64,000 nt of DNA from the NCBI RefSeq assembly GCF_035709525.1, contig NZ_DASTEP010000124.1:12851-76850 (forward strand). Reading direction: 5' to 3'. This stretch comes from Hymenobacter sp. (GTDB lineage: Bacteria; Bacteroidota; Bacteroidia; Cytophagales; Hymenobacteraceae). Below are positions 1 through 40,719 of the stretch, in pieces (position 1 is the first letter of the stretch; every line of letters starts with the position of its first letter). The notes beneath the pieces were generated by a model. That model worked only from the letters and a program-made list of their open reading frames with translations, made no database searches and was not told where the DNA came from. The position numbers and the translations under genes were made by a program.

Positions 1-863
1 CGCCAGCGCACGCCGTGATAGGCGCGGAACACGGCCGATTTCTCGGCCAGCGCCGCCTCATCGAAGCGCACCACCGAAAAGGCGTGCTGCGCGAAGTAGT
101 CTTTGGGGAAAGCGTAGGGCAGGCCCCAGCGCTCGGGCTTGCGGTTGGCGGGCAAAAAGGCCGTGCCAAACATCCAATCCCAGAAAGCGAATTTGGTCGA
201 GAAGTTGGCGTAGTACACCTCTTCGTGGTCGGCGTGGTGCCAGAGGTGCATTTCGGGGCCGTTGATAACGTATTGCAGCTTACCCGATTTCACATCGATG
301 TTGGCGTGAATGTACATGCCCCACACGGCATCAATCAGCGCCTTGATGGGCACTACTATCGGGTTGGCCCCCAGCAGAATAATGGGCGCAAACTCGATGG
401 TTTGGTTGATGATAATCTCGACGATGTGCGAGCGCGAGCCAGCCAGCCAGTCCACGTGCTTGCCCGAGTGGTGCGCCTCGTGGGTGCGCCAGAAGAAGGC
501 GCTGCTGTGCTGAAAGCGGTGAAACCAGTAGATATAAAAATCGTGCGTTATCACGAAAAACGCTACCTGCGCCGCCACCGGCCAGCTACTCACCACGTGA
601 AAGCGCGCCCCAAAGTGCGCGGCCAGCGGCGCGATGATGAACCCGAAAATCAGGATTTGCAGGAAATAGCTCTGCACCAGCGTGTACCAAAAGAGGTCTA
701 CGAACAGCCCTTCGCGGAAAAACGGCAGCCCCTTGCGGTACGGAAACTTGCGCTCCAGCACCAGCAACACCGCCACCGCCAGCAGCAGGATGGGCGTGGT
801 TATCATCGTGGTACGGCCCACCGCGTCGAGGCTATGGTAAAACGTGCTTATCGTATCGAGCAT
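1..863 (-). CDS. Sterol desaturase / fatty acid hydroxylase family membrane protein (3' end runs off the window)
   Basis: Manual translation from ATG at 863 (MLDTISTFYHSLDAVGRTTMITTPILL...), absent from the ORF track because no stop lies in the window. Contains the His boxes YWFHRFQH, HEAHH and HLWHH of the di-iron membrane hydroxylase family, plus hydrophobic segments. Confidence 0.85.
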   Translation of the reverse strand, partial: MLDTISTFYHSLDAVGRTTMITTPILLLAVAVLLVLERKFPYRKGLPFFREGLFVDLFWYTLVQSYFLQILIFGFIIAPLAAHFGARFHVVSSWPVAAQVAFFVITHDFYIYWFHRFQHSSAFFWRTHEAHHSGKHVDWLAGSRSHIVEIIINQTIEFAPIILLGANPIVVPIKALIDAVWGMYIHANIDVKSGKLQYVINGPEMHLWHHADHEEVYYANFSTKFAFWDWMFGTAFLPANRKPERWGLPYAFPKDYFAQHAFSVVRFDEAALAEKSAVFRAYHGVRW

Positions 864-1068: not shown

Positions 1069-1090
1069 GCGGACTGAAAGTCCGCGCTAC
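1068..1090. repeat. Single hairpin unit of REP-like family B (GCGGACTGAAAGTCCGCGCTAC)
   Basis: Identical to the right half of the element at 41800-41862; abuts the NeuB stop codon. Confidence 0.75.
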
Positions 1091-1974
1091 TAGGCGGCCG
1101 TTACCTCGCGGCGCAGGCGACGCAGGGGCTCTTTCTCACTCTCGTACACCACTTTCACGCCGTCGCCGAGGCCGGCTTCGGTGTCGCGGATGTCGCGCAC
1201 AAGCTTGGCCATGCCACCGGGCTCTACGCTGGCGGCGTGGTCCGAGCCCCACATGGCGCGGTCGAGGGTGAAGTGGCGCTCTACGAACGTGGCGCCCAGG
1301 GCTACCGCCGTAACGGTGGTGCTGAGGCCGGTTTCGTGGCCCGAGTAGCCGATGGGCGTGCCGGGGAACTGTTGTTCCAGTGTTGAAATCATACGCAGGT
1401 TCAGCTCCTGGGGCGGGCAGGGGTAGGCCGACGTGCTGTGCGCAATCATCAGGTTATCAAGGCCTACGTAGGCTACGGCGTCCGTGATTTCCTGCTGGGT
1501 GCTCATGCCGGTGCTCAGCATGAGGGGGCGGCCGGTAGCGCGCACGCGGTCGAGCAGGGGCTTGTCGGTGAGCGAAGCGGAGGCCATTTTGTAGAGCACG
1601 GGCTGGAATTGCTCCATGAAATCGACCGAGGGCTCATCCCAGCACGAGGCAAACCAGTCGATGCCGCGGGCTTTGCAGTAGTCGTCGATGGCGGTGTACT
1701 CTTCGAGGCCAAACTCGGTTTTGCGCTTGTAGTCGATGTAGCTCATGCGGCCCCAGGGGGTGTCGCGCATTTTTTCCCACTGGTCTTTGGGCACGCACAG
1801 CTCGGGGGTGCGCTTCTGAAATTTTACCGCATCGCAGCCAGCGGTCACGGCCGCGTCGATGAGTTGCTTGGCAATGTCGAGCGAGCCGTTGTGGTTGATG
1901 CCGATTTCGGCAATGATGTAACACGGCTGGCCGGGGCCAATGGCGCGGTTTTTCTTGATTTGAACGACTGACAT
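1090..1974 (-). CDS. neuB: N-acetylneuraminate-synthase-family (NeuB) PEP-dependent ulosonate synthase, short form lacking the C-terminal antifreeze-like domain
   Basis: Motifs IAEIGINHNG, DAVKFQ, YKMAS, LSTGMS, HSTSAYP, GYSGHE, ERHFTLDR. At 294 aa it ends right after the TIM barrel. Confidence 0.92.
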   Translation of the reverse strand: MSVVQIKKNRAIGPGQPCYIIAEIGINHNGSLDIAKQLIDAAVTAGCDAVKFQKRTPELCVPKDQWEKMRDTPWGRMSYIDYKRKTEFGLEEYTAIDDYCKARGIDWFASCWDEPSVDFMEQFQPVLYKMASASLTDKPLLDRVRATGRPLMLSTGMSTQQEITDAVAYVGLDNLMIAHSTSAYPCPPQELNLRMISTLEQQFPGTPIGYSGHETGLSTTVTAVALGATFVERHFTLDRAMWGSDHAASVEPGGMAKLVRDIRDTEAGLGDGVKVVYESEKEPLRRLRREVTAA

Positions 1975-2183: not shown

Positions 2184-2711
2184 CTACTCCGAGCCGCGAT
2201 TGGGTACCGGCGCGCCGCCCTTGTGGCTGATAATGAGCTCGGCTAATTCGCGAAACGCGCCCTGCCCGCCGAAGGCCTGGCACTGGTAATCGGCCGCCTC
2301 GCGGGCAAAAACCGTGGCATCGCCGGGGCAGGCCGCCAACCCCACGAGGCCCAGAATAGCCACGTCGTTGGTATCGTCGCCGATGAAGGCTACTTCCTCG
2401 GCCGTGAGGCTCAGGCGGGTCAGAATCTCGGCCAGCAGCGGCGCTTTGTCCTTGATACCCAGGTGCAACTCATTGATTTTTAGCTTTTCGGCGCGCTTCA
2501 CCACCGAGGGCGAGCGCTCGCCGGTCACGATGCCCGTGTCCACGCCCACGGCGCGCAGGCGCTCCACGCCCATGCCATCGCGGATGTTGAAGCGCTTGAG
2601 CACCTCGCCGCTTTCGCCGTAGTACACGCCGCCATCGGTGAGGACGCCGTCGCAGTCGGTGAGCAAGAGTTTGATGCGGCGGGCTTTAGCAGCTAAGTCA
2701 GCGTGCTTCAT
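2184..2711 (-). CDS. KdsC/YrbI-type HAD phosphatase (Kdo-8-P / Kdn-9-P phosphatase family)
   Basis: LLLTDCDGVLTDG, FNIRDGMG, IVTGERS, FIGDDTND and GGQGAFRE motifs. Confidence 0.9.
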   Translation of the reverse strand: MKHADLAAKARRIKLLLTDCDGVLTDGGVYYGESGEVLKRFNIRDGMGVERLRAVGVDTGIVTGERSPSVVKRAEKLKINELHLGIKDKAPLLAEILTRLSLTAEEVAFIGDDTNDVAILGLVGLAACPGDATVFAREAADYQCQAFGGQGAFRELAELIISHKGGAPVPNRGSE

Positions 2712-2765: not shown

Positions 2766-2837
2766 GTTGCGCGGACTTTGTAGTCCGCGTGCGTACGCAA
2801 GCAGCCAACCGTACGCGGACTACAAAGTCCGCGCAAC
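2766..2837. repeat. REP-like family B: two inverted hairpin units (GCGGACTTTGTAGTCCGC ... GCGGACTACAAAGTCCGC)
   Basis: Nested palindrome read directly; ends at the SDR stop codon. Confidence 0.85.
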
Positions 2838-3643
2838 TAAATCGCCGTCCAGCCGCCATCCACCACGAGGTTGGCCCCCGTCATGTAAGCCGAAGCATCC
2901 GAGGCCAGAAACACCACGGCGCCTTGGTAATCGGTAGGCGCGGCCATGCGCCCCAGGGGCGTTTTGGCGCTGTACTGCTTCACAAAAAAGGCATCCTGGC
3001 TGTTCTCCACGCCGCCCGGCGAGAGCGTGTTTACGCGCACGCCCTTGGCGCCCCAGTAAGCCGCTAGGTAGCGCGTGAAATTGACTACCGCGCCCTTGGT
3101 AGTGGGATAAGACGGTGATTTATAGAACGTCTGCTCACCGGCCTCGTTGCGGTAGATGCTCTGGTCGGGCCCAACGATGCCGTAGGTACTCGCCACGTTG
3201 ATGATGGAACCACGGCCTTGCTCGGCCATCGGCGTGCCGAATACCTGCGCGGCCAGAAACAGCCCCGTCACGTTCACCTCCAGCACCTGCCGGAAGGTCG
3301 CCACCGGGAAGTTCTCAAACTTGCTGAGGTCGGCCGCCAGGGCCGGGTTCTCGAACATGTCGTTGATAGCCGCATTGTTAACCAGCACGTCGATGTGCCC
3401 GAAATTCTTGATAATTTCATCACGGGCGGCGGCCAGCGACTCGGGCGAGGTTACGTCCACGGCCAGCGGCAGGTGAATGGCGCCCGGCAGCGCGGCGGCC
3501 ACTTCGCGAGCCTTGTTGAGGTGCAGGTCGGCTACTACCACGTGGGCACCGGCCAGGGCCAGCGCCTCGCAGTGCTTTTGGCCGATGAGGCCGCACGCGC
3601 CGGTTACGATGGCGGTTTTGTTGGTTAGGTCGAAGAAATTCAT
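2837..3643 (-). CDS. SDR family oxidoreductase (resembles the SDRs found in nonulosonate clusters)
   Basis: TGACGLIG Rossmann motif, NNAA, YPTTK catalytic YxxxK, RVNTLSPGG and C-terminal VDGGWTA. Confidence 0.92.
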   Translation of the reverse strand: MNFFDLTNKTAIVTGACGLIGQKHCEALALAGAHVVVADLHLNKAREVAAALPGAIHLPLAVDVTSPESLAAARDEIIKNFGHIDVLVNNAAINDMFENPALAADLSKFENFPVATFRQVLEVNVTGLFLAAQVFGTPMAEQGRGSIINVASTYGIVGPDQSIYRNEAGEQTFYKSPSYPTTKGAVVNFTRYLAAYWGAKGVRVNTLSPGGVENSQDAFFVKQYSAKTPLGRMAAPTDYQGAVVFLASDASAYMTGANLVVDGGWTAI

Positions 3644-3850: not shown

Positions 3851-5152
3851 CTACTTCGCCTTCACCGGCGCGGCGTTCGTCACCTTGCGGAATACGGCTT
3901 CCACCGGCTCGCCTTCCAGGCGGCTAGCCACGTCGCCCTTCTCGATAGCGTCTTTGAGCAGCGGCAGCACGGCGCGGTAGGCGTCCAACGTTTTAGCCAC
4001 GTCCTCGTCGGTGTGCGAGAAGCTCATGTTGTGGAAACCGCCCCACAGGATGCCCTGCTTGAACAGCTCCTGCTGCACGAAAGCCTTTACTTCCAGCGGG
4101 TTGCCAGCGCTGGCGTCGAAGGTCACGATGCTGCGGCAGTCGTAGCCGTAGCACTTGGTGTAGCTGCTGAGGCCGAGCTCGGCAGCGATTTGGTTGTAGC
4201 CTTCCTTCAGCTTGTTGCCCTGGCTGGCCAAAAACGCGGGCACGTTTTTCTCGCGCATCTCGCTGATGGTGGCGATGGTAGCCGCCAGGCTGAGCGCTTC
4301 ACCGCCGAAGGTGGTGAAGAAGAATACGTCCTGCTCAAACAGTTGCAGCACGTCCTTGCGGCCGGTGAGTAGGGCGATAGGCATCCCGTTGGCGCAAGCT
4401 TTCGAGTACACCGCGAGGTCGGGCGTGATGCCGAAATACTCCTGCGCGCCGCCAATAGCGATGCGGAAGCCCGTCCACATCTCGTCGAAAATCAGCAGCG
4501 TGCCGTTCTCTTTGCAGAGGCGGGCTACCTCGTGCAGGAAGTTGTCCTTGGGCGCGTCGAAAATGAATGGTTCCAGGATAACGCAGGCCACGTCGGGCGT
4601 CAGCACAGCCTTGAACGAGTCGAGGTTGTTGTACTCGAAGGCCGCTACCAAGTCCTTGCTTTCCTGCGGGATACCCTTGTCGCGGCTCGTGGTGCCGATG
4701 TACCAATCGTGCCATCCGTGGTAGCCGCAGCACAGCACGTCCTTGCGGCCGGTGAAGGCGCGGCTCACGCGCACGGCCGCCGAGCACACGTCAGCCCCGG
4801 TTTTGGAGATGCGGATGCTCTCGGCGTTGGGGATAATCTCGTGAATCAGCTCGGCTACCTCTACTTCCAGCTCGTGCATCATCGAAAACGTGATGCCGTC
4901 TTCGAGCTGCGCCTTGATGGCTTCATCCACGCGGGGGTAGGCGTAGCCCAGGCTCAGCGGGCCGATACCCATCTGGTAGTCAATGTACTCGTTGCCATCG
5001 ACGTCCCACACGTGGGCACCTTTGCCGCGCTTCACGTACTTGGGGCTCGCACCTTTGGTGTACTGGCCCGGCCCCTTGGCGAGGGTTTGGGTCACGGGCG
5101 TCATGATTTTCTGCGCCCGGGCGTAGAGGTCGTCGGATTTGGGGAAATTCAT
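3851..5152 (-). CDS. Class III PLP-dependent aminotransferase (glutamate-1-semialdehyde aminomutase-like)
   Basis: WDVDGNEYIDY, GYHGWHDWY, FDEMWTGFR and YSKACANG (PLP lysine). Start set at ATG 5152; the longer ORF-track start lies inside a repeat. Confidence 0.9.
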   Translation of the reverse strand: MNFPKSDDLYARAQKIMTPVTQTLAKGPGQYTKGASPKYVKRGKGAHVWDVDGNEYIDYQMGIGPLSLGYAYPRVDEAIKAQLEDGITFSMMHELEVEVAELIHEIIPNAESIRISKTGADVCSAAVRVSRAFTGRKDVLCCGYHGWHDWYIGTTSRDKGIPQESKDLVAAFEYNNLDSFKAVLTPDVACVILEPFIFDAPKDNFLHEVARLCKENGTLLIFDEMWTGFRIAIGGAQEYFGITPDLAVYSKACANGMPIALLTGRKDVLQLFEQDVFFFTTFGGEALSLAATIATISEMREKNVPAFLASQGNKLKEGYNQIAAELGLSSYTKCYGYDCRSIVTFDASAGNPLEVKAFVQQELFKQGILWGGFHNMSFSHTDEDVAKTLDAYRAVLPLLKDAIEKGDVASRLEGEPVEAVFRKVTNAAPVKAK

Positions 5153-5193
5153 AAGGATTAGCTGGTTAGCCAGAATGTCAGAAATAAAAACGC

Positions 5194-5289
5194 CTGTCAT
5201 GCTGAGCTTGCGAAGCATCTCATCACGATAGAATCGTCGGGTTCAACAATCCGGACGTGATAGGATGCCTCGCAAGCTCAGTATGACAG
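5194..5289. repeat. REP-like family A palindrome
   Basis: CTGTCATGCTGAGCTTGCGAAGCATC ... GATGCCTCGCAAGCTCAGTATGACAG. Confidence 0.85.
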
Positions 5290-5302: not shown

Positions 5303-6256
5303 TTACTCGGCAAACTCGTTTTCAACCACTTCCGTTTTCTCGTTGAAAACGTGCTGCTTATCACCCAGCTTCTCGCCGATGCGGCGGGCAATGTGCTGGC
5401 CGGTGAAACCTTCGTACTCCAGCACCTCGCTAAGGCGGCCGGGCTTGTACCACTTTTCCTTGAGGGCCAGCGGCAGCACCTTGGCGGTCAGCTCATTCTC
5501 CAGCAGCAGCTCGGCCACGATGGAGTAGAGGCCGCCGGTCTGGAAGTGGTCTTCCAGCGTCACCACGAGGCCGCCGGTTTTCACCACGTTCAGCACGGCT
5601 GCCGAGTCGAGGGGCTTGAGGCTGCGCAGGTTCACGAGGCCTACCGAGTAGCCGGCTTCGGTCAGCAAGTCCTTAGCTACCAGGGCTTGCCCGAACAGCA
5701 TGCCGTAGGTGAGGATGGTGACGTCGTGGCCTTCGCTCACGATTTCAGCCTTGCCGATTTCAAACGGCGCGTGCTGGTAGGTGGCGGGGCGGGTGTTGAC
5801 GCGCACGTAGGCCGGGCTGGGCGAGGCCCAGATGGCGGGCAGCATGGCCAACATGTCCTGCTCATCGGCGGCGGCGAAAACCGTCATGCCGGGGATGCCG
5901 CGCATCAGCGAGATATCCTCAATGGCCTGGTGGGTCGGCCCGTTGCCATCCGACAGAAAGCCGGGCACGAACGAGCTGATTTTCACCGGCAAGTTGGCAA
6001 TGCCCACGTCGGTGCGGATAAACTCGAACGCCCGCAGCGTGAGGAAGGTAGCCAGCGCGTGCACCACCGGCACGCGCCCGCGCAGGGCCAGGCCGGCCGC
6101 CGCGCCAATCATGGTTTGCTCGGTGATGCCGGTGTCGATGAAGCGCAGCCCGAGCGGCCCCGGCAGGTTGCGGATGAGGGCGCGGTTTTCGGCCGTCATC
6201 ACGATGAGGCGCTCGTCGGCGAGGGCCGTTTCGTGGATTAATTGCTCGTAATTCAT
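5303..6256 (-). CDS. Transketolase, C-terminal (pyrimidine-binding + C-terminal) subunit
   Basis: RFIDTGITEQTMIGAAAGLA, DGNGPTHQAIEDI and LRSLKPLD. Start MNYEQ at 6256. Confidence 0.9.
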   Translation of the reverse strand: MNYEQLIHETALADERLIVMTAENRALIRNLPGPLGLRFIDTGITEQTMIGAAAGLALRGRVPVVHALATFLTLRAFEFIRTDVGIANLPVKISSFVPGFLSDGNGPTHQAIEDISLMRGIPGMTVFAAADEQDMLAMLPAIWASPSPAYVRVNTRPATYQHAPFEIGKAEIVSEGHDVTILTYGMLFGQALVAKDLLTEAGYSVGLVNLRSLKPLDSAAVLNVVKTGGLVVTLEDHFQTGGLYSIVAELLLENELTAKVLPLALKEKWYKPGRLSEVLEYEGFTGQHIARRIGEKLGDKQHVFNEKTEVVENEFAE

Positions 6257-6268
6257 ATCGGTTAAAAT

Positions 6269-6381
6269 TGTCATGCTGAGCGCAGCGCAGCGGAGTCGGA
6301 GCATCTCTGCCGGTGAACTAACTCCTAACGCTAGCAGCGAAGCGGTAGAGATGCTTCGGCTTCGCTGCGCTCAGCATGACA
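6269..6381. repeat. REP-like family A palindrome
   Basis: TGTCATGCTGAGCGCAGC ... GCTGCGCTCAGCATGACA; its loop shares CTCCTAACGCTAGCA with the copy at 7253. Confidence 0.88.
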
Positions 6382-6386
6382 GTTAG

Positions 6387-7244
6387 TTATCTAACAGTGA
6401 GGGTTTCGCTGGTGAGCGTGGTAGCTTCCTGGCTGTGCAGCTCTTTGAGCAGCTCCGTCACCTCGTCGCTGCTGAAGTTGCAGAACCAGCGGTCGGCGCG
6501 GCGCTCGATGCTGGGCAGGCCCTTGCCGCGCACCGTGTCGCAGATGATAACCGAGGGCTTTTCCTGGCTGAACGGCAGGGCTGAAAACGCCTCTTCCAGC
6601 GCCACGAAATCGTGGCCGTCGATGCGGCGCACGGCGGCACCGAAAGCCTCAAACTTGGGCGCCAGCGGCTCCAGCGGAATCAGCTCCTCGGTGGCGATGT
6701 TGGCCTGGAAGTGGTTGCGGTCGACCACGAAGGTCAGGTTGTTGAGCTTGTGGGCGCTGGCTACCAGCACGGCTTCCCAGCAGGTACCCTCGTTGAGCTC
6801 ACCGTCGCCGGTTATCACGATGACTTTCTGATTTTGGCCGCGCAGGCGGGCGTCGAGAGCTACGCCCATGGCTACGCTCGGCAGGTGGCCCAGCGAGCCC
6901 GAGTGAAACTCCACGCCCGGCACGTTGCGGTTGGGGTGCCAGTAGATGCTGTCGCTGGTTTTCAAGTGATTATCCAGCCGCTCCTTGGGCATGAAGCCCA
7001 GCTCGGCAAACACCCCGTAGAGCGCCGGCACGTCGTGGCCCTTGCTCAGGAATAGGTAGTCGCGCTCCGAGTCGGTGAGGTTGCCGGGGTGCACGTTGAG
7101 AAAATCGGCGTAGAGGTACACCAGCAGGTCGGCGCAACTCAGCGAGGCGCCCGTGAAGCAGCCGCCATCGGTGCTGAGGCGCACGATGTGCTCGCGCACG
7201 CGCAGGGCGAGTTCTTTTAGCTCGTTTTGTTTTTCGGAGGTCAT
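6387..7244 (-). CDS. Transketolase, N-terminal (ThDP-binding) subunit
   Basis: LSKGH, HSGSLGH and the GDGELNEG...N ThDP-binding motif. Confidence 0.9.
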   Translation of the reverse strand: MTSEKQNELKELALRVREHIVRLSTDGGCFTGASLSCADLLVYLYADFLNVHPGNLTDSERDYLFLSKGHDVPALYGVFAELGFMPKERLDNHLKTSDSIYWHPNRNVPGVEFHSGSLGHLPSVAMGVALDARLRGQNQKVIVITGDGELNEGTCWEAVLVASAHKLNNLTFVVDRNHFQANIATEELIPLEPLAPKFEAFGAAVRRIDGHDFVALEEAFSALPFSQEKPSVIICDTVRGKGLPSIERRADRWFCNFSSDEVTELLKELHSQEATTLTSETLTVR

Positions 7245-7380: not shown

Positions 7381-8175
7381 TTACAATTGCTTGGTATTGC
7401 CCGCGTCCACCGTTTTGAGTTCGTCCAAGTGGTTGCGGTACCAGTTCACGCCGGCCAGGTCGGCATTCAAGGCGTAAATGTCCGGCCTTTGTTTTAATAA
7501 AGTCAGGATATCGTCCAAACCAAACTCGGGATTAACCGGATAAAGCGCTTCGTACACGGCCTTTATGAAGTCATAATCGGCCGGGTAATCGATGGTGAGG
7601 CGGTGCGACATCGAGTAGTCCAGCCCCGTTTCCCAGGTGATATTAGCCAATCGGAAGCGCTCGGGGTTTTCCCAGAAAAAAGGGGTAGTGTGCTCGCGCT
7701 CCAAGGGGCGGCGGGCCTCGCGCCAGGCCGTTTCGAGCGCCGCGAAGGTCATTACCTCCACGTCGTTGCCATCGGGGTAGGTAGCGGGGTGCAGGTTGCT
7801 GACAAAGTCGTACTGGCCCTGCGTTTCCTCATAATAACCCAGCACCTTATCGATAATGGCCGGGTCGATGAGCGGGCAATCACTCGGGATTTTCACTACT
7901 GCCTCCGTTTCGCCAAAGTGCCGCGCCGCCTGGTAGTGGCGGTCGAGCAAGTCGAGCGCCGAGCCCCGAAATACTTCAATACCGTGCTGCGCGCACAGCG
8001 CGGCCAGCGGGTCGTCGCTTTGCTCATCGGTGGTGATGACGGCCACGCGGCCCGCCCGGGTGGCCAGTTGCACCCGCTCTACCTGGCGCACCAATAGCGG
8101 CTTGCCGCAGAGGTCGAGACTTACTTTATCGGGAAAGCGCGAGGAGCCGCGCCGGGCCTGAATTAGCGTGAGCAT
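7381..8175 (-). CDS. SpsF-type cytidylyltransferase (CMP-ulosonate synthetase-like)
   Basis: IQARRGSSRFPDKV, VFRGS..DLLDR, SDCPLIDP, YPDGNDVE, REHTTPF and RLTIDYPADY. Confidence 0.88.
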   Translation of the reverse strand: MLTLIQARRGSSRFPDKVSLDLCGKPLLVRQVERVQLATRAGRVAVITTDEQSDDPLAALCAQHGIEVFRGSALDLLDRHYQAARHFGETEAVVKIPSDCPLIDPAIIDKVLGYYEETQGQYDFVSNLHPATYPDGNDVEVMTFAALETAWREARRPLEREHTTPFFWENPERFRLANITWETGLDYSMSHRLTIDYPADYDFIKAVYEALYPVNPEFGLDDILTLLKQRPDIYALNADLAGVNWYRNHLDELKTVDAGNTKQL

Positions 8176-8246: not shown

Positions 8247-9314
8247 CTAGTGCGTGGCGGGGGCCAGTTCGGCTGGGGCGGGCACCTCGGCGGCCGGCCG
8301 GTACTGGCGCAAAAACTCCGCGCCGGAGCCCGCAAACTGCCCGTATTGCCGGCACAGGTCGGCAATGCGGCGGGCGCTGGTGCCGCCATTCTGAATGGGC
8401 AGCTTGCGCTTGAGGTCGTCGACATCGAAGTAGGAATGCACGGGGATGCCAAGCGCCAAACCCACGTAAGCTACAGTACTATACTGCGTTATCAGCTCTA
8501 CGCAGTTGGCTATCATTTCCTCGGTGTTGCCGCTGGTGAAAATGCGCGTGCCAGGCGGGGCCCATTTTTCGACCTCGGCGGTGGCGCGGGCCATGTTTTC
8601 GTTGGGGTGAAACTTGAAGAACATGGGCCGCCCGGCCGCGATGCGGGTAGCGTGCCGGATAAACTTTTTGCGGTTATCGGGCCGGTAGGTTTCGCGCATG
8701 TCGGTGGTGGCCACCAGCACGTAGCCGCGGTGCGGAAAGCTATTATTGCGCAGCTTCTCGATGTTGTCGAAATTCGGAATGCCCGTCACGATGAGCTTAT
8801 CCTTGTCGACCCCGATTTTCTCGAAGTGCTCGGCGTAGCCCGGCGAGGCCACGCAGTACACGTCGCAGATGTTGTTCATCCCGTTCAGCGCGGTGCTGAT
8901 GGTGAGGATGGGAAAGTTGGTAAACTTCTTCACCAGGCGCGCCCACAGGTTGAGCGGGTCGGTCATGCCCTCCTGCACGAACACCGACTTGGTTTTCTTG
9001 AGCAGGTTCCAGGGCACGATGATGTCGGAGCAGCACACGATGAGGTCGTACTCGTGGCCGAATACGCGGTTCTCGAAGTCATTGCGCAGGTTGTGGGCGG
9101 CCAGGTACTTATCGCCCTTTTCCTTGATGTGGCCCTGCACGATGGTTTGCTTCAGCCCGCCGGTGCGCAGCAAAAACTGGTAGAAGCCCCGCATCCAGCC
9201 ATCGTAGTAAAGCTGGCTGAAATAGGGCTCGTACTCATCCTCAAGCAGCTGCGCGATGCCGTGCATCTGCGTAGTCTGGTTGGGCGAGCCGATTAAATAA
9301 AGCGCCTTTTTCAC
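8247..9314 (-). CDS. Hypothetical protein, probable GT-B fold glycosyltransferase (candidate ulosonate transferase)
   Basis: GTG start. Contains VQEG, VTGIPNFD, FKFHPNE and STVAYVGLALGIP, recalling CMP-sugar and teichoic-type transferases. Family not confirmed. Confidence 0.6.
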   Translation of the reverse strand: MKKALYLIGSPNQTTQMHGIAQLLEDEYEPYFSQLYYDGWMRGFYQFLLRTGGLKQTIVQGHIKEKGDKYLAAHNLRNDFENRVFGHEYDLIVCCSDIIVPWNLLKKTKSVFVQEGMTDPLNLWARLVKKFTNFPILTISTALNGMNNICDVYCVASPGYAEHFEKIGVDKDKLIVTGIPNFDNIEKLRNNSFPHRGYVLVATTDMRETYRPDNRKKFIRHATRIAAGRPMFFKFHPNENMARATAEVEKWAPPGTRIFTSGNTEEMIANCVELITQYSTVAYVGLALGIPVHSYFDVDDLKRKLPIQNGGTSARRIADLCRQYGQFAGSGAEFLRQYRPAAEVPAPAELAPATH

Positions 9315-9385
9315 AAAAAATACGTGTAAAAATCACGCAAAAATACACTAGCGCCGCCTTGCGGGCGGGGCGCGAAGCTATCGGG

Positions 9386-9856
9386 CTACTGCGCGCGGTA
9401 GGTCACGTTGCGGCCCAGCAGGCCGGCCGTTTTGGTGAGCTCGTCCCAGGCCACGCTGGCGCGGCCTTCGCGCTTTTCGCCGGGGTATTCGATGAGCTTA
9501 TAGTGCTTGCTGGCTAGCTCGGGGGCGTAGGTGCCGGTGAGCACCAGCTGCCGGCCGCGCACGGCCCCATCGAGCACCACGGCCCCTACCTCCGACACGG
9601 CGCGGGGCTCGGTGCGCACGGTCAGCTGCTCGCGGTTGACGTCTTTGATGGCGTAGCCCCGGTCGACGAGGCCCTGCATGAGGGCGGTGAGGGCCACCAG
9701 GCCGCTGTCGCGGCGGGCGATGAGGGCGGCATTAGCCTTTTTAGGAGGCAGCACTACCGGCGCTTTGGGAGCCGCTGCGGCGGGGGCCGCCGGGGCTTGC
9801 TGGGCCAGGGCCAGGGTAGGCAGCAGCGCCAGGCTAAGAAGAAGCAGGGGTTTCAT
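9386..9856 (-). CDS. Secreted hypothetical protein
   Basis: Signal peptide MKPLLLLSLALLPTLALAQQ from ATG 9856; typical codon usage. Confidence 0.7.
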   Translation of the reverse strand: MKPLLLLSLALLPTLALAQQAPAAPAAAAPKAPVVLPPKKANAALIARRDSGLVALTALMQGLVDRGYAIKDVNREQLTVRTEPRAVSEVGAVVLDGAVRGRQLVLTGTYAPELASKHYKLIEYPGEKREGRASVAWDELTKTAGLLGRNVTYRAQ

Positions 9857-10081
9857 AAGGGGCGAGGTACTAAGCAGAAAGAACTGAACGGAAGCGGCAC
9901 CAGGGCGGCGGACGGGCGGCAGCCAGCGGACCACCGCCCGAAGCTACAAAGGTCGGGCTAGATGACGGTACCAGCGGCCTGACATTTTACCGGCTGGCCG
10001 GTTTAGGGCGCGGGCCTGGCCGCTGGCCCGGCCATCCTGCCTTTCTTGCAAGGTATTTTAGGCTGCGACGCGGCCCGCCCC

Positions 10082-11329
10082 ATGCCCACCGACGCCCCTA
10101 CCCCTGCTTCATCAGTAGCTACCGCCGCCGTGCCGGTGTTTCTCGACCTCGAGCAGCGGCGCGTGCTGCTGGTGGGCGGCGGGGCCGAGGCCCTGGCCCA
10201 GCTTGGCACCGTGCTGGCCGCCCACCCCACGGCCCGCGTCACGGTGGTGGCCCCTACCCCGATGCCCGAGCTCGTGGCCCTGGCCCAGCGCCACCCGCAG
10301 GTGCGGGTGCTGGCGCGCGCCTTCGAGCCGGCCGACCTGGCCGGGCACGACCTGGTGCTGGTGGCTACCCCCGATGCCGGGCTGCTCGGCCGCGTGCGGG
10401 CCGGGGCCGCCGCCCGCCGCCTGCACGCCGTGGCGGCCTTCGGCCCTGCCGAAGAAGCCGAGGCCACCGCCTACTGGCGGCGCGTGGCCACGTGGGCGCT
10501 GCTGGCCTTCGCGGGATTTTTGATGCTCACCATCTTGTCGTACTACTTCACCTGGCAGCAGGCGTGGGCAGGGGTGCGCGGCGCGGGCACGTTCTACACG
10601 TTCGTGGCCGTGGGCTTCGTGGCCCAGCTGATAGATGGCATGCTGGGCATGGGCTACGGCATCGTGTCGGCCATCAGCCTGATGACGCTGGGGCTGCCCC
10701 CGGCCTCGGTGAGCGCCAGCATTCACACGGCCGAGATGTTTGCCAGCGGCGCGTCGGGCTACCACCACTACCGCTTCGGCAACGTCAACAAGAAGCTATT
10801 CAGGGTGCTGGTGCTGCCCGGCGTGGCCGGCTCAGTGGCCGGGGCGCTGCTGCTCGCGCGGCTGGGCGAGGCGCACGTGGCCTACCTCAAGCCGGTGCTG
10901 GCCGTGTACCTGCTCGTGCTGGGCGCGCGCATCATCAGCAAGGCTCTTAAAAAGCAGCCGCAGCAGCGCCGCAAGGTGAAAAATGCCGGCTGGCTGGCCA
11001 GCGCGGGCGGCTTTCTCGACTCGTTTGGCGGGGGCGGCTGGGGGCCGCTGGTCACGAGCACGCTCATTGCCAACGGCCGCACGCCGAGCTACGTCATCGG
11101 CACGGTGAGCCTGGTAGAGTTTTTCGTGACGTTCGCCAGCGCGGTCACATTTTTTTCGGTGCTGGGCTTCAAGCACTGGCAAATCGTGCTGGGCCTCATC
11201 GGCGGGGGCGTGGCGGCCGCGCCCATTGCCGCCCGCCTGGCCGGCCGCCTACCCACCCGCTGGATGTTCGTGGGCGTGGGTGCCATGGTTATTTTCTGGA
11301 GCCTCTGGACGCTGCGCAAGCTGCTATAA
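10082..11329 (+). CDS. TSUP (TauE/SafE sulfite exporter) transporter fused to an N-terminal siroheme-synthase-like NAD-binding domain
   Basis: N-terminal PVFLDLEQRRVLLVGGG; C-terminal GFVAQLIDGMLGMGYG and DSFGGGGWGP repeats. Confidence 0.85.
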   Translation: MPTDAPTPASSVATAAVPVFLDLEQRRVLLVGGGAEALAQLGTVLAAHPTARVTVVAPTPMPELVALAQRHPQVRVLARAFEPADLAGHDLVLVATPDAGLLGRVRAGAAARRLHAVAAFGPAEEAEATAYWRRVATWALLAFAGFLMLTILSYYFTWQQAWAGVRGAGTFYTFVAVGFVAQLIDGMLGMGYGIVSAISLMTLGLPPASVSASIHTAEMFASGASGYHHYRFGNVNKKLFRVLVLPGVAGSVAGALLLARLGEAHVAYLKPVLAVYLLVLGARIISKALKKQPQQRRKVKNAGWLASAGGFLDSFGGGGWGPLVTSTLIANGRTPSYVIGTVSLVEFFVTFASAVTFFSVLGFKHWQIVLGLIGGGVAAAPIAARLAGRLPTRWMFVGVGAMVIFWSLWTLRKLL

Positions 11330-11981: not shown

Positions 11982-14942
11982 GTGAATAAATTAGTTGTTA
12001 TCCTGCTCGCGCTGTGCGGCGCGGGGCAGCTCCGCGCCCAGTCGGGTGCCTGGCTGCCCGATAGTGCCCGCCCGGCGTATCCGCGCACCTTGCTCGCAGC
12101 CCCGGCCCTGCCCCAGGTGCAAGCCTCGCTGGCCGAGCCCGGCCGGCGCGCCATCTACCAGAGCCTGTGGGCCGACGTGCAAAGCCCGCCGCCCACCGAC
12201 AACACCTCGGCCAGCGGGCGGCGGGCGCGGGCCACCTGGGCCAAAAACGCGGCCTTCGCAGTGCTGCTAAACCGGCAGCCGGCCGGCGCGGGCCTGGCCC
12301 CGCTGCCCGCCGAAACGCACGATGCCCTGGCCGCCAGCGCCCGCAGCCTGCTCGAAAGCCTGAACACCGAAGTAGAGCCCTTCGCCACCTGGACTGGCAC
12401 CATGCCCTACACCGAGTGGCAGTGGCGCTCGAAGGAGCTGATTGACTACCTGATAGCCTACGACCTGCTGCGCGGCGCGGGTGAAAGCGCGGCCGCGCTA
12501 GCGGCCGGCCAGGCCCGGCTCCAGGTTTTTGCGGGCAACCTCTACCGGCAGTCGACCACGCCGCTGATGGGTATCACGTTTTACAGCGCCGTCAAAAACA
12601 ACCACACCCTGATGACGGCCGCCGCCCTGGGCATGGCCGCCGTGGTGCTGAACGACGCGACCAGCACCGACGCCAACCAACAGCCCGCCCGCTGGGCCGG
12701 CGCGGGGCTGCACACCATCGACAACGTGCTGTGGCGCGACGCCCAGCGGCAGTCTGACTCGACGCAGGTGGCGGGCTACGCCGAGGGGCCGTACTACTGC
12801 AAGTACGCGCTGCTCAACTGCTTACCGTATTTCCGGGCGATGGGTAATTTTCTGCCCGATGGCCGCCTGCCTTACACTTTCGGCGGCAGCACGCGGAGCA
12901 TCCGCAACCCCTATTTCGACCCCAAATACGACCGGCTATATGAGTGGCTGACGGCCATCCGGCTGCCCGACGGGCGGCTGCCGGCGCTGGAAGACTCCTA
13001 CGTAGACATGGGCATGCCCGAGCTGGCCCTCACCGGCAAGCCGCAGTATGCCAAGCCGATGTACTACAGTAAAATAACGGGCACGGGCATGGCCTCCGAC
13101 CTGGCGCAGCTGCGCGACGCCACCGTGGACATGCGCGCCGCCTGGCTGGCCGCCGCCGTGGCCCCCACCGCGCCCGCGCACCCGGCCCTGACGGTGCTGC
13201 CGGGCAGCGGCAACTTGATTTTTCGGTCGGGCGCCGACTCGGCCGCCACCTACCTGCACGTGTACGGCCGCGGCGGCACAGCCCAAAGCAACAGCGGCGG
13301 CCACAACCAGGGCGACGCCAGCAGCTTCATTTTGCACGCGCAGGGGCAGCTGCTGGCCCTCGACCCCGGCTACCTCAGCTACGGCCGCCGGGCCGAGGTG
13401 GGCGCGGCCACCAGCCACAACCTAGTGCTGGTAGATGGCGCGGGCCCCGCCCTGGGCGCGCCCGGCGCTACCAACTCGGCCCCCGCCGCCATCGAGCGCA
13501 CCTTCCAAACGCCGCAGCTCAGCTACGGCGAGGTAACGACGAGCTACCAGCAGGCCCGCCTCACGCGCAAGACGCTGTTTGTGCGCAACACCTACTACCT
13601 GCTGGCCGATGCCGTGAGCGCCGCCGCACCCCGCACCTACACCTGGCAGCTGCACGGCTACGGCCTGGCGGGCGGCACGGCCGCCACTGGCACCTTCGCG
13701 GGCAATCTGGCTGGGCACGAGGGCACCTGGCAAAAAAACGGCGTGCGCCTGCTGGCCCACGTGGCGGGCACCGGCACGGCCGCCACCTATGCCACCGCTA
13801 CCAACCCCCACGAAACTACCTATAACACCGCCGAAAACCACACCACGCTGCTGGTGCAGCAAAGCGGCACAACCCAAACGCAGTTTTTGAGCGCGCTCTA
13901 CCCCTACGCTGCCCAGCCGCCGCAGGTGGCCACCACCAGCCAGGCCACCACGGCCGCGCTGGCCACCGCCGCCGAGGGCTTCGTGGATGTCGCCTTCGCG
14001 CAGGCCGATACCGTGCTGACTGCCGACGCCAGCGGCCGGCTGCCGCAGGCCGTGCAGGCCGATGGGCTGCTCAATTTTTATTCGGCCGACGCCAACGGCA
14101 AGTTCGCCCAGCTTTTTGTGCAGGCGGGCACCACGCTGCAAGTCGGCCCCGCGGCCGTGCTGACGTCCGCACGCCGGGCCGATATAAGCTGGCAGCGCCT
14201 CAGCCCCGGCCACTACGCCGGCTACGCCAGCCGCGCCACCACGCTGCTGCTGGCGCTGGGCAGCGCGCCCAGCGCCGTGCGCGGCGCGGGCGTGGCCAGC
14301 TACGCCTACGATGCCGGCTTACAGCAACTGCGCGTAGTACTAAGCCAGGCTTCGGACTTTGAGGTAGCGCTGCCGGCCGCCGGCAGCGGCACCGCACCGC
14401 TGCCGGTGGTGCTCACCGATTTTGCGGGCCAGCGCCAGAGCGCGGCCGTGGCGCTGAGCTGGCACACGGCGTCGGAGCAGCACAATGCGGGCTTCGAGGT
14501 GCAGCGCCGGACGGCGGAAGCGGCCGATTTTACTACCCTTGGCTTTGTGGTGGGCGCGGGCACGGCCAGCCGCAACACGGGCTACGCCTTCCGCGACGCG
14601 GCGGCCCCAGCCGGGCTGGTGTACTACCGCCTGCGGCAGCTCGACCGTGATAGCACCGCTACCTACTCGCCCGTGGTGGCCGTGGCGGGTACCACCCCGG
14701 CCGGGGCCGCCGAGGCCAGCATGCGGGTGTTTCCGCAGCCCGCCCGCGACTGGCTGCGGGTGCAGATGGCCGGCTCCGCGCCGCCCACCACGCTGCAGCT
14801 GCTCGATAACCTGGGCCGCGTGGTGCGCCAGCAACTTTGCCAAACCGAAACGCAGCTGGATGTGCGCGGGCTACCCGCCGGCCTCTACTACCTGGTGGCC
14901 AGCGGCACCGCTGGGCGTCAAAAAGTGGTCATCGAACCTTAA
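11982..14942 (+). CDS. Heparinase II/III-like polysaccharide lyase with T9SS C-terminal sorting domain
   Basis: Signal peptide; NNH, EGPYY, GHNQGD..SF, DPG and SHN.V.VDG motifs; PLPVVLTDF Ig-like module; VFPQPA...GLYYL sorting tail. Confidence 0.82.
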   Translation: MNKLVVILLALCGAGQLRAQSGAWLPDSARPAYPRTLLAAPALPQVQASLAEPGRRAIYQSLWADVQSPPPTDNTSASGRRARATWAKNAAFAVLLNRQPAGAGLAPLPAETHDALAASARSLLESLNTEVEPFATWTGTMPYTEWQWRSKELIDYLIAYDLLRGAGESAAALAAGQARLQVFAGNLYRQSTTPLMGITFYSAVKNNHTLMTAAALGMAAVVLNDATSTDANQQPARWAGAGLHTIDNVLWRDAQRQSDSTQVAGYAEGPYYCKYALLNCLPYFRAMGNFLPDGRLPYTFGGSTRSIRNPYFDPKYDRLYEWLTAIRLPDGRLPALEDSYVDMGMPELALTGKPQYAKPMYYSKITGTGMASDLAQLRDATVDMRAAWLAAAVAPTAPAHPALTVLPGSGNLIFRSGADSAATYLHVYGRGGTAQSNSGGHNQGDASSFILHAQGQLLALDPGYLSYGRRAEVGAATSHNLVLVDGAGPALGAPGATNSAPAAIERTFQTPQLSYGEVTTSYQQARLTRKTLFVRNTYYLLADAVSAAAPRTYTWQLHGYGLAGGTAATGTFAGNLAGHEGTWQKNGVRLLAHVAGTGTAATYATATNPHETTYNTAENHTTLLVQQSGTTQTQFLSALYPYAAQPPQVATTSQATTAALATAAEGFVDVAFAQADTVLTADASGRLPQAVQADGLLNFYSADANGKFAQLFVQAGTTLQVGPAAVLTSARRADISWQRLSPGHYAGYASRATTLLLALGSAPSAVRGAGVASYAYDAGLQQLRVVLSQASDFEVALPAAGSGTAPLPVVLTDFAGQRQSAAVALSWHTASEQHNAGFEVQRRTAEAADFTTLGFVVGAGTASRNTGYAFRDAAAPAGLVYYRLRQLDRDSTATYSPVVAVAGTTPAGAAEASMRVFPQPARDWLRVQMAGSAPPTTLQLLDNLGRVVRQQLCQTETQLDVRGLPAGLYYLVASGTAGRQKVVIEP

Positions 14943-39235: not shown

Positions 39236-39319
39236 TTTCAGTGCTTGGTTGTTGGTGCCTAGTGCTTAGCCTACCATCAGCTAAGCACTAGGCACCAACA
39301 ACCAAGCACTGAAACTACG
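39231..39319. repeat. Perfect 89-bp palindrome spanning the stop codons of two convergent genes
   Basis: CGTAGTTTCAGTGCTTGGTTGTTGGTGCCTAGTGCTTAGC-ctaccatca-GCTAAGCACTAGGCACCAACAACCAAGCACTGAAACTACG. Confidence 0.9.
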
Positions 39320-40568
39320 GCGTATTCTCGACCACTTGCGGGCCGCTGGGCGCTTCGGCCTCGGCGGCTTCGTCTTTGAGCGTGCCCAGCTCGCGGCCTA
39401 CTTTTTTGAAGGCGGCAATGGCTTTGTCGAGGTGCGCGCGGGTGTGGGCGGCGCTGAGCTGCACTCGGATGCGGGCCTTGCCCTGCGGCACCACGGGGTA
39501 GTAGAAGCCCACCACGTAGATGCCCTCATCGAGCATTTTGGCCGCGAATTCCTGGGCCAGCTTGGCATCGTAGAGCATAACGGGCACGATGGGGTGCTCG
39601 CCGGGCGTGATGTCGAAGCCGGCGGCCGTCATGTGCTCGCGGAAGTACTTGGTGTTTTCTTCGAGCTGGTCACGTAGGGCGGTGCTTTCGGTGAGCAGCT
39701 CCAGCACGCGCAGCGATGCGCCCACGATGGCCGGGGCTAACGTATTGGAAAACAGGTAGGGGCGCGAGCGCTGGCGCAGAATTTCGATAATCTCCTTGCG
39801 GCCGCTGGTGAAGCCGCCCATCGCGCCGCCCAGGGCTTTGCCCAGCGTGCCGGTGATGATGTCCACGCGGCCCATTACGTCGCGGTACTCGTGGGTGCCG
39901 CGGCCGGTTTTGCCCAAAAAGCCCATCGAGTGGCACTCGTCTATCATCACCAGGGCGTCGTACTGGTCGGCGAGGTCGCAGATTTTGTCGAGCTGCGCGA
40001 TGGTGCCGTCCATCGAAAACGAGCCGTCGGTGACGATGATGCGGTGGCGCATGCCCGCGTTCACGGCGTCCTGGAGCTGCTTTTCCAGGTCGGCCATGTC
40101 GTTGTGGGTGTAGCGGTAGCGCTTGGCCTTGCACAGGCGCACCCCGTCGATGATGCTGGCGTGGTTGAGCGCATCCGAGATAATAGCGTCGCGCTCATCA
40201 AACAACGGCTCGAAGACGCCGCCGTTGGCGTCGAAGGCCGCCGCGTAGAGAATGGTGTCCTCAGTGCCCAGAAACTCGGCCAGCTTGGCTTCGAGCTGCT
40301 TGTGAATATCCTGGGTGCCGCAGATGAAGCGCACCGAGCTCATGCCGTAGCCGTGCGAGTCGAGGGTTTCCTTGGCGGCCTTCAGCACCTCGGGGTGCGA
40401 GCTGAGACCCAGGTAGTTGTTGGCGCAGAAGTTGAGCACCTCGCCCGCTTCGTTGGTCTGGATTTCCGCGCCCTGGGGCGTGGTAATGACGCGCTCCTTT
40501 TTGTAGAGGCCGGCGTCTTTTATTTCTTGCAGCGTCTGCTGAAGGTCGGCTTGGAGGGTTCCGTACAT
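39315..40568 (-). CDS. kbl: Glycine C-acetyltransferase (2-amino-3-ketobutyrate CoA ligase)
   Basis: [39 protein letters not shown] and RSRPYLFSN. Start ATG 40568. Confidence 0.96.
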
Positions 40569-40596
40569 GGGTGGTAGAGTATTGATAATGAAACGG

Positions 40597-40719
40597 CTGT
40601 CATTGCGAGCGCAGCGAAGCAATCGCACCAGCACAAGAATGAGTAGACGAAGCTAGTACGCCGATTCTATTACAGTAGCTCGTTTTGGTGCGATTGCTTC
40701 GCTGCGCTCGCAATGACAG
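40597..40719. repeat. Variant family A palindrome (CTGTCATTGCGAGCGCAGCGAAGCAATCGCACCA ... TGGTGCGATTGCTTCGCTGCGCTCGCAATGACAG)
   Basis: Perfect inverted arms read directly. Confidence 0.88.

Follow-up and report, generated by a model that had tools for sequence, protein, structure and literature searches.

Bacterial operons that encode a GT-B lipid glycosyltransferase together with a MprF-like flippase and lead to an amino-glycolipid have been described for C. difficile (hexSDF, PMC10128005) and for P. aeruginosa (gpgSDF, PMC12713373). Ulosonic acids are transferred to lipids by other GT-B enzymes, among them KpsS/KpsC (GT107) and WaaA (GT30), which act on the cytoplasmic face of the membrane and move a sugar acid activated with cytidine monophosphate (CMP) to lyso-phosphatidylglycerol or a lipid A precursor. 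Here we analysed 64,000 nucleotides of a Hymenobacter sp. contig (NZ_DASTEP010000124.1; "the window" refers to this whole stretch), in which a gene at 8247-9314 on the minus strand encodes a protein of 355 amino acids (aa) with a predicted GT-B fold. This protein and the members of its family are called GTB for short. GTB is probably a peripheral-membrane CMP-(amino)nonulosonate:lipid transferase and belongs to no Pfam family; its donor, acceptor, stereochemistry and catalysis are all features that we infer.

Sequence and predicted structure of GTB

The frame is unbroken from a GTG start at 9314 to a TAG stop at 8247-8249. A plus-strand open reading frame (ORF) at 8250-9296 overlaps the gene and is the usual antisense shadow of coding DNA rich in guanine and cytosine (GC); homologues of the minus-strand frame number in the thousands and keep the gene order. 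A sequence search recovered 5063 homologues at E<=1e-3, and an exhaustive HMMER search at this threshold gave 320 clusters at 50% identity. The gene and the elements of its product discussed below are:

8247-9314, minus strand: GTB, 355-aa GT-B protein, putative CMP-(amino)nonulosonate:lipid transferase (ORF, AlphaFold model, fold matches and homologues)
8967-8978, minus strand: V113-Q114-E115-G116, located where an N-domain strand ends, candidate region of the catalytic base (conservation and hhalign)
8598-8618, minus strand: F233-K-F-H236-P237-N-E239, the HP motif in the C-domain, which may contact the nucleotide phosphate (conservation and hhalign)
8919-8957, minus strand: amphipathic helix of residues 120-132 (core LNLWARLVKKF), candidate membrane-interface element (hydrophobic moment and model)

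AlphaFold2 with the GTB alignment produced a model of two Rossmann-like domains with a predicted local distance difference test score (pLDDT) of 91.7 and a predicted template modelling score (pTM) of 0.89. Foldseek and two VIA-align runs on this model concurred on a GT-B fold, and a search of structures representative at 40% identity returned 117 chains with Z>=8, of which the best 50 listed were all GT-B enzymes. Apart from the epimerases discussed further below, structural matches included TarL with cytidine diphosphate (CDP)-ribitol (Z 14.8), PglA (Z 14.4), MurG (Z 14.2), TagF (Z 14.1), the polysialyltransferase 5wc6 (Z 13.4-13.7), WaaA 2xci (Z 13.0), MGD1 (Z 12.7), PimA (Z 12.2) and LpxB (Z 11.9). 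TarL, TagF, the polysialyltransferase and WaaA, which are all cytidine-nucleotide transferases, are among the best of the non-epimerase matches.

At E<=0.01 GTB matched neither the sialyltransferase Pfam families PF07388, PF07922 and PF11477 nor the families PF05159 (Capsule_synth) and PF04413 (Glycos_transf_N) of 3-deoxy-D-manno-oct-2-ulosonic acid (Kdo) transferases, and there was no Pfam match to Glyphos_transf (PF04464). A sequence search of the PDB with the protein and with the family profile gave no meaningful match, and the NCBIfam scan returned only a faint match to TIGR04396, a "surface carbohydrate biosynthesis protein". The feature neighbours of GTB in the ESM-Atlas, which we use as a lead only, carried Glyphos_transf, A-2_8-polyST (GT38), LIC12162 and DUF6716 and not Epimerase_2, and one neighbouring cluster had PF07388 in 33% of its members.

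We aligned 41 GTB sequences reaching down to 26% identity. Within the VQEG motif Q114 was invariant (41/41), with E115 kept in 37 and G116 in 36 sequences; within FKFHPNE the counts were 35/41 for K234, 33/41 for H236, 39/41 for P237 and 35/41 for E239. Since both motifs persist down to this level of identity, they are under selection and not due to chance. G178 was likewise present in all sequences, and D79, D97, E115, P237 and Q308 were each conserved in at least 90%. Conserved blocks along the alignment were GSxNQTxQMH, YDLVVxCxD, VLVQEGMxDP, FCVASEGY, VTGIPNFD (with G178), YVLVxTSDxRE, FKLHPNE and PxQNGGxSAxxIA.

No transmembrane segment was detected in GTB, for which the highest Kyte-Doolittle mean over 19 residues was 1.36. 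The helix of residues 120-132 combines a hydrophobic moment of 0.78 with a mean hydrophobicity near zero, and the AlphaFold model places a helix at 123-130, directly after the QEG loop, with pLDDT values of 64-76 around residues 120-132. Peripheral lipid-directed GT-B enzymes use an amphipathic helix element of this kind. An earlier note on this DNA (the original prediction) had remarked on the GT-B-like spacing, on both motifs and on the lack of an obvious transmembrane segment, and these remarks agree with the model, the alignment and the hydropathy values. The structure prediction and fold search that it had suggested, with a fold other than GT-B as an outcome speaking against it, gave GT-B.

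Operon context and phylogenetic distribution

GTB is the first gene of a co-oriented run and the cytidylyltransferase is the next, in agreement with the predicted position at the head of an operon before the CMP-activating enzyme. Downstream of GTB the window encodes:

7381-8175, minus strand: CTP_transf_3 cytidylyltransferase (KdsB/SpsF-like), presumed to make the CMP-sugar donor (Pfam PF02348, E 2.8e-26)
5303-7244, minus strand: split transketolase, N subunit at 6387-7244 and C subunit at 5303-6304 (Pfam/NCBIfam; order conserved)
3851-5218, minus strand: class III (GSA-aminomutase-like) aminotransferase
2837-3643, minus strand: short-chain dehydrogenase/reductase (SDR) family dehydrogenase
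2184-2711, minus strand: KdsC-type HAD phosphatase; its best NCBIfam model is the 9-phosphate phosphatase of the nonulosonic acid Kdn (159.6 bits, cut-off 180)
1090-1974, minus strand: short NeuB-family synthase of 294 aa (Pfam NeuB, E 1.5e-77)
1-863, minus strand: membrane fatty-acid hydroxylase of 348 aa, the last gene of the operon, extending beyond the window start (PF04116, E 8.4e-27)

The same gene order was found in at least 12 loci of different Bacteroidota families. This main operon type comprises GTB, cytidylyltransferase, transketolase N and C subunits, class III aminotransferase, SDR, (KdsC), NeuB and hydroxylase. The hydroxylase, for which the ornithine-lipid hydroxylase OlsE is the best NCBIfam model, lies downstream of NeuB in 11 further loci besides the one in its own genome. 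A complex prediction for GTB and the operon hydroxylase scored 0.00, which counts neither for nor against binding. The same genome encodes on another contig (C186; L058:9727-17374) for a second, conventional NeuB, which is 37% identical to the operon NeuB and is accompanied by its own cytidylyltransferase-like, SDR and DegT-like genes.

The distribution of these genes was profiled in 401 Bacteroidota genomes from across the phylum, which are related and do not represent independent observations. The GTB family profile was present in 137 of them. An orthologue of the short NeuB (E<=1e-80; matches at 61-82% identity) was present in 136, all of which are among the 137 with GTB, so that the two lists differ by a single genome (G097). 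Within families the presence of GTB was patchy (1/12, 1/7, 1/8, 2/17 and 4/8 genomes), and this patchy shared presence argues for repeated joint gain or loss of GTB and NeuB. The link to a CMP-ulosonate pathway that had been proposed from gene order in one operon is thereby extended, with GTB tracking NeuB and the cytidylyltransferase nearly without exception across the 401 genomes.

A second operon type was found in one of the sampled families, which was identified as Chlorobiaceae by an exact match to Chlorobium limicola DSM 245 (ACD90448). Here the order (L042-L044, from genomes G098, G070 and G206; e.g. L043:6394-11556) is flippase-like gene, GTB, PseF-like cytidylyltransferase, iron-containing alcohol dehydrogenase (Fe-ADH) and DegT aminotransferase; the Fe-ADH/DegT pair stands where the Hymenobacter type has SDR, class III aminotransferase and transketolase. 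In all three Chlorobiaceae genomes examined the KdsC-NeuB pair is unlinked to GTB, lying about 620 kb away in Chlorobium limicola; despite this, 75 of the 87 sampled Chlorobiaceae genomes encode both GTB and NeuB.

In both operon types the neighbour of GTB is a CTP_transf_3 cytidylyltransferase, nearly always directly adjacent; in the complete operons of the main type the two genes adjoin without exception. Cytidylyltransferase, dehydrogenase and aminotransferase are non-orthologous between the types (KdsB-like/SDR/class III versus PseF-like/Fe-ADH/DegT), and the Chlorobium cytidylyltransferase is not even found at 1e-5 when that of Hymenobacter serves as the query. Orthologous between both types are GTB (43% identity), NeuB (65%) and KdsC (56%). 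What remains constant is therefore a synthase, a phosphatase, an oxidation/amination step, CMP activation and GTB, and in the loci compared no other glycosyltransferase was found in the conserved gene set. In Chlorobiaceae and four further families the gene immediately upstream of GTB is flippase-like.

Some loci depart from these arrangements. The GTB gene of G097 (L038:8581-10680) adjoins a gene for a calcineurin-like metallophosphoesterase, and a metallophosphoesterase gene also closes a full operon at L081:17120-18808; it is possible that this protein is an extra member of the pathway. In genome G182 (L035:8217-9461) a gene for a DNA methylase (N6_N4_Mtase) stands between GTB and the cytidylyltransferase, with the remaining pathway on other contigs.

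Natural fusions of GTB

Fourteen longer GTB homologues were surveyed for additional domains. Ten of them carried an N-terminal LPG_synthase_TM domain, which is the MprF-type flippase-like domain. In P0309 an orthologue of the operon hydroxylase (58% identity, residues 27-255) is fused to a GTB orthologue (47%, residues 331-641), and the P0309 gene ends an otherwise identical operon. Further fusions joined GTB to the cytidylyltransferase (P0315), to an ABC-2 permease (P0313) and, in one long form, to a class III aminotransferase. Two candidates were set aside: P0131 is not a hydroxylase fusion, as its C-terminal domain rather resembles part of an acyl-lipid desaturase, and it may have arisen from faulty assembly or a frameshift; P0170 is read with a frameshift. 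The short contigs of P0126 and P0131 yielded no gene context.

The metagenome contig that encodes P0313 (L078:5720-14292) also carries, adjoining this gene, an ABC ATPase and a 1086-aa protein combining fatty-acyl-AMP ligase, carrier protein and alpha-oxoamine synthase, as well as a 377-aa protein of no assigned family and a 3-beta-HSD-type reductase. This set looks like a self-contained module that makes, glycosylates and exports a long-chain amino lipid.

Proposed pathway

In the pathway that we propose, the short NeuB and the KdsC-type phosphatase would convert a sugar phosphate into a nine-carbon 3-deoxy-ulosonic acid. SDR, class III aminotransferase and transketolase would aminate or remodel this acid, and the adjacent cytidylyltransferase would activate the product to a CMP-sugar. 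GTB would dock at the cytoplasmic face of the inner membrane via the amphipathic helix 120-132 and hold the CMP-sugar in the C-domain, where H236 and P237 of the HP motif would touch the phosphate; a carboxylate of the N-domain (E115 of Q-E-G, or D97) would help to pass the sugar acid to a hydroxyl group on a membrane lipid. Judging from the fusion in P0309, the operon fatty-acid hydroxylase may create this acceptor hydroxyl. In many lineages the adjacent or fused MprF-type flippase-like protein would then move the glycolipid outward.

For Chlorobiaceae the corresponding route would lead from NeuB and phosphatase to a Kdn-type acid, which Fe-ADH and DegT would turn into an amino acid sugar; the cytidylyltransferase would form the CMP-sugar, GTB would transfer it to lipid and the flippase-like protein would move the product outward. 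The Fe-ADH/DegT pair resembles the dehydrogenase-plus-aminotransferase route to the 8-amino derivative of Kdo (Kdo8N) in Shewanella. The literature found on Kdo8N consisted only of papers on Shewanella and on lipopolysaccharide, which do not address this comparison.

The acceptor lipid

Which lipid might be modified is best approached in the green sulfur bacteria. The Chlorobium lipid is reportedly neuraminic acid on a ceramide with myristate. GTB is found in most of the sampled Chlorobiaceae, as described above, and its product there is plausibly the aminoglycosphingolipid reported from Chlorobium limicola. This "aminoglycosphingolipid" (Jensen et al. 1991) is cited in PMC11762602, and Chlorobium appears among the sphingolipid producers listed in PMC10626005. 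In the literature found on the genes of the operon, on sphingolipids of Chlorobium and green sulfur bacteria, and on nonulosonic-acid ceramides, there was no description of the GTB family or of genes for the Chlorobium lipid.

An alpha-oxoamine synthase of C. limicola has the Bacteroidota-type serine palmitoyltransferase (Spt) as its best model (460 bits, below the cut-off of 640). This Spt-like gene was present in 312 of the 401 genomes and near-universal outside the class Bacteroidia (62-72% identity), and sphingoid-base synthesis may be far more widespread in non-Bacteroidia lineages than reported. The same 401-genome search did not detect the Spt-like gene in Hymenobacter or in f23, a family in which GTB is always present, so that a link between GTB and sphingolipids is not supported as a general rule. 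A ceramide acceptor in Hymenobacter was also considered and is not supported by the synthases present. The alpha-oxoamine synthase encoded in the window (39315-40634, minus strand) is the glycine C-acetyltransferase Kbl (TIGR01822, 709 bits) and not an Spt, so that it does not speak for sphingolipid synthesis in the window; the only other one of the genome is ambiguous between the Spt-CFB (309 bits) and BioF (290 bits) models; this BioF/Spt-like enzyme is also present in a congener without GTB.

A wider proposal, to which we give slightly less than even chances, is that GTB is the founding member of a new glycosyltransferase family, the CMP-(amino)nonulosonate:lipid transferases. These would produce phosphorus-free "bacterial sialo-lipids", with the acceptor hydroxyl supplied by the co-transcribed or fused hydroxylase and export carried out by the MprF-type flippase-like partner. 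The Chlorobiaceae orthologue would then be the missing head-group transferase of the Chlorobium limicola aminoglycosphingolipid, with Fe-ADH and DegT turning the Kdn-type acid into a free-amino sugar.

Alternative functions of GTB

A lipid-directed CMP-sugar transferase acting in the last step is favoured because it explains the fusions, the flippase-like neighbour, the lack of any other transferase and the KdsC-type phosphatase. Several observations nevertheless weigh against it. In this Hymenobacter no flippase-like gene adjoins the operon, and the four PF03706 genes of the genome, all at other sites, show no close relationship to the operon-linked type. The genome also has no clear serine palmitoyltransferase, so that the ceramide acceptor assumed for Chlorobium is not simply transferable. 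The N-domain motif, which the original prediction had set beside the D/E-D/E-G motif of sialyl- and polysialyltransferases, is in fact Q-E-G with an invariant Gln. The further counter-evidence is given with the alternatives on which it bears.

A rather unlikely alternative is that GTB is a lipid-directed GT-B transferase with another donor, either a TagF-like CDP-alcohol phosphotransferase or a primer enzyme transferring a uridine diphosphate (UDP)-sugar to lipid, with the ulosonate attached by an enzyme encoded elsewhere or polymerised by GTB itself. TarL and TagF are the best structural matches outside the epimerases, the homologue P0126 showed a faint match to Glyphos_transf below the cut-off (E 0.009), and clusters neighbouring GTB in the ESM-Atlas carry the same domain. 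Two loci also point in this direction: the ABC-2-fused form on L078 has no ulosonate genes (NeuB, cytidylyltransferase) within 10 kb, and G097, as the only such genome sampled, encodes for GTB without an orthologue of NeuB or of the cytidylyltransferase. Such a donor is difficult to reconcile with the joint presence of GTB and NeuB in 136 of 137 genomes and with the constant position of GTB beside a CTP_transf_3 enzyme, to which it is fused in one case. The CTP_transf_3 family makes CMP-ulosonates, not CDP-alcohols. Moreover, no second transferase that could attach the ulosonate is conserved in the gene set.

We also consider it unlikely, at about one chance in ten, that GTB catalyses the first step of the pathway as a NeuC/LegG-like hydrolysing nucleoside diphosphate (NDP)-sugar 2-epimerase, or as a PseG-like hydrolase, feeding a free hexose to NeuB for condensation with phosphoenolpyruvate. 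The structural comparison is closest to this alternative: the nearest solved structures are hydrolysing and non-hydrolysing UDP-N-acetylglucosamine (UDP-GlcNAc) 2-epimerases including NeuC (Z 15-17.7; Foldseek E ~1e-10), and NeuC 5zlr, with Z 17.7 and a root-mean-square deviation of 4.0 over 286 aligned residues, stands about 3 Z units above the transferases. Epimerase_2 (PF02350) was the sole match in the Pfam scan of GTB (E 0.0037, residues 147-268), and the genome-wide scan gave the same sub-threshold match; its 16.6 bits are only about half of the gathering cut-off of 30.6. Alignment of the GTB profile with three true Epimerase_2 proteins from related genomes by hhalign (probability 42%, E 2.6e-4, 271 columns) revealed the sole kinship at the profile level, and this sequence comparison points to a relationship that is real but distant. 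Some databases label homologues "UDP-N-acetyl glucosamine 2-epimerase", and the co-occurrence with NeuB would suit a first step as well as a last one. No true Epimerase_2 gene was found in the scan of the Hymenobacter genome, and the pathway of its second NeuB must therefore use another type of NDP-sugar hydrolase.

The hhalign comparison gave counterparts for three epimerase positions. The Asp of the GD motif is kept as D97 and the His-Pro of HPR as H236/P237, and the catalytic Glu of HxEAG aligns with Q114, with E115 adjacent (a shift by one); D97, E115 and H236 stand where the epimerase has D95, E117 and H213, for which we presume the roles known from the E. coli and Bacillus enzymes. Missing from the GTB alignment are further UDP-binding and catalytic motifs, namely the Arg of GxRP (R10), PEExNR, HRR and the nucleotide-binding block DSGGxQEE. 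At the level of sequence this pattern would fit a changed nucleotide and a changed chemistry.

The genetic context is likewise at odds with an epimerase. The similarity of the KdsC protein to Kdn-9-phosphate phosphatases, together with NeuB, implies a phosphorylated NeuB substrate, which an NDP-sugar hydrolase does not provide, and there is no kinase in the gene set. Being joined to a flippase-like domain, a membrane hydroxylase or an ABC-2 permease would make no sense for a soluble enzyme supplying a precursor. Such an enzyme would explain neither the flippase-like neighbour nor the lack of another transferase and would leave the conserved gene set without a transferase for the CMP-sugar. The function of GTB is not decided by the fold alone. 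The original prediction had named UDP-GlcNAc 2-epimerase activity as an outcome that would speak against it; the fold lies close to the epimerases, and the missing motifs and the membrane fusions make such an activity unlikely.

It is most improbable that GTB has no catalytic activity and serves as a GT-B scaffold or regulator organising the enzymes of the pathway at the membrane, because the replacement of H236 in 8 of the 41 aligned members, which also counts against the catalytic reading, is opposed by a strong conservation of cleft residues typical of an active site (Q114, G178, D79, D97, E115, P237 and Q308) and because the pathway would be left without a transferase.

For the lipid-directed CMP-sugar transferase, the GT-B fold, the absence of a Pfam transferase match, the co-occurrence with NeuB and the fusions are all in line with the original idea of a CMP-ulosonate transferase outside the known families. 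The cytoplasmic acceptor that had been proposed is retained as far as the cytoplasmic face is concerned; the acceptor there would be a membrane lipid rather than a soluble molecule.

Upstream region of the operon

A spacer of 72 bp separates GTB from an unrelated upstream gene for a small secreted protein. Within it lies a promoter-like element:

9338-9345, minus strand: TATTTTTG, in agreement with the Bacteroidota -7 promoter pattern TAnnTTTG and 24 nt ahead of the GTG start (read from the sequence)

We take TAnnTTTG to be the Bacteroidota -7 promoter consensus and call TATTTTTG promoter-like on this basis. GTB as the head of the operon is reasonable because this spacer, with TATTTTTG, and an unrelated gene lie upstream of it. 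The product of the upstream gene (9386-9856, minus strand) has a clear signal peptide (MKPLLLLSLALLPTLALAQQ...) and no match in Pfam or NCBIfam, and the gene does not recur beside GTB in other genomes. Further upstream, the GC content of the window rises to 0.70-0.71 between 10000 and 15000, compared with about 0.60 in the operon. This stretch, which may be DNA of foreign origin, contains a TauE/SafE-type exporter fused to a siroheme-synthase-like NAD-binding domain (10046-11329, plus strand) and an ORF of 986 aa (11982-14942, plus strand).

Significance and comparison with known systems

GTB was found in about a third of the Bacteroidota genomes sampled and in most of the sampled Chlorobiaceae. 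If it is a transferase of the proposed kind, a gene that is called "hypothetical" or misnamed "UDP-GlcNAc 2-epimerase" would stand for the committed step in attaching a sialic-acid-like sugar to a membrane lipid. GTB would define a new family of ulosonate transferases and make an orphan lipid of green sulfur bacteria accessible to genetics. Its product would be a bacterial counterpart of gangliosides that occurs widely and might play a part in envelope charge, in the sparing of phosphate and in host or phage recognition, and a database name that propagates automatically would be corrected.

With Epimerase_2 proteins such as NeuC, GTB shares the GT-B fold, the best structural scores, a distant likeness at the profile level and the counterparts of the Asp, the Glu region and the HP motif, and NeuC is, like GTB, linked to a NeuB pathway. 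We do not file GTB as a member of this family, as it scores below the Pfam cut-off, lacks several motifs, occurs in fusions with membrane proteins and carries an amphipathic helix behind the QEG loop. The sialyl- and polysialyltransferases of GT38, GT52 and GT80 have a GT-B fold in which an acidic-Gly motif of the N-domain precedes an HP motif of the C-domain, as in GTB, and receive a CMP-nonulosonate donor from a neighbouring CMP-synthetase, which is presumed for GTB as well. GTB differs from them in the lack of a match to PF07388, PF07922 or PF11477, in its Q-E-G with invariant Gln and in its acceptor, which appears to be a lipid and not a glycan. TagF and TarL share with GTB the GT-B fold and a His-containing motif in the C-domain and, as is presumed for GTB, are membrane-peripheral and use a cytidine-nucleotide donor; they differ in that GTB does not match their Pfam family and has a neighbouring activator of the CMP-ulosonate type, not TagD/TarI.

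Conceptually, GTB is also similar to KpsS/KpsC and WaaA, which share an HP motif. In these systems ABC-type export follows the transfer, and a fusion to an ABC-2 permease exists in the GTB family. Differences are the missing match to PF05159 or PF04413, the sugar, which in GTB is probably a nine-carbon amino acid sugar and not Kdo, and the MprF-type flippase-like partner. This partner connects GTB with hexSDF and gpgSDF, which follow the same logic of a lipid glycosyltransferase coupled to a flippase-like protein; in the GTB family the coupling is adjacent or fused (the ten fusions; Chlorobiaceae and four other families) and is absent next to the Hymenobacter locus. GlcNAc (gpgSDF) or a hexosamine with a deacetylase is used in those operons, whereas GTB belongs to an unrelated GT-B family and would be served by a dedicated CMP-ulosonate pathway.

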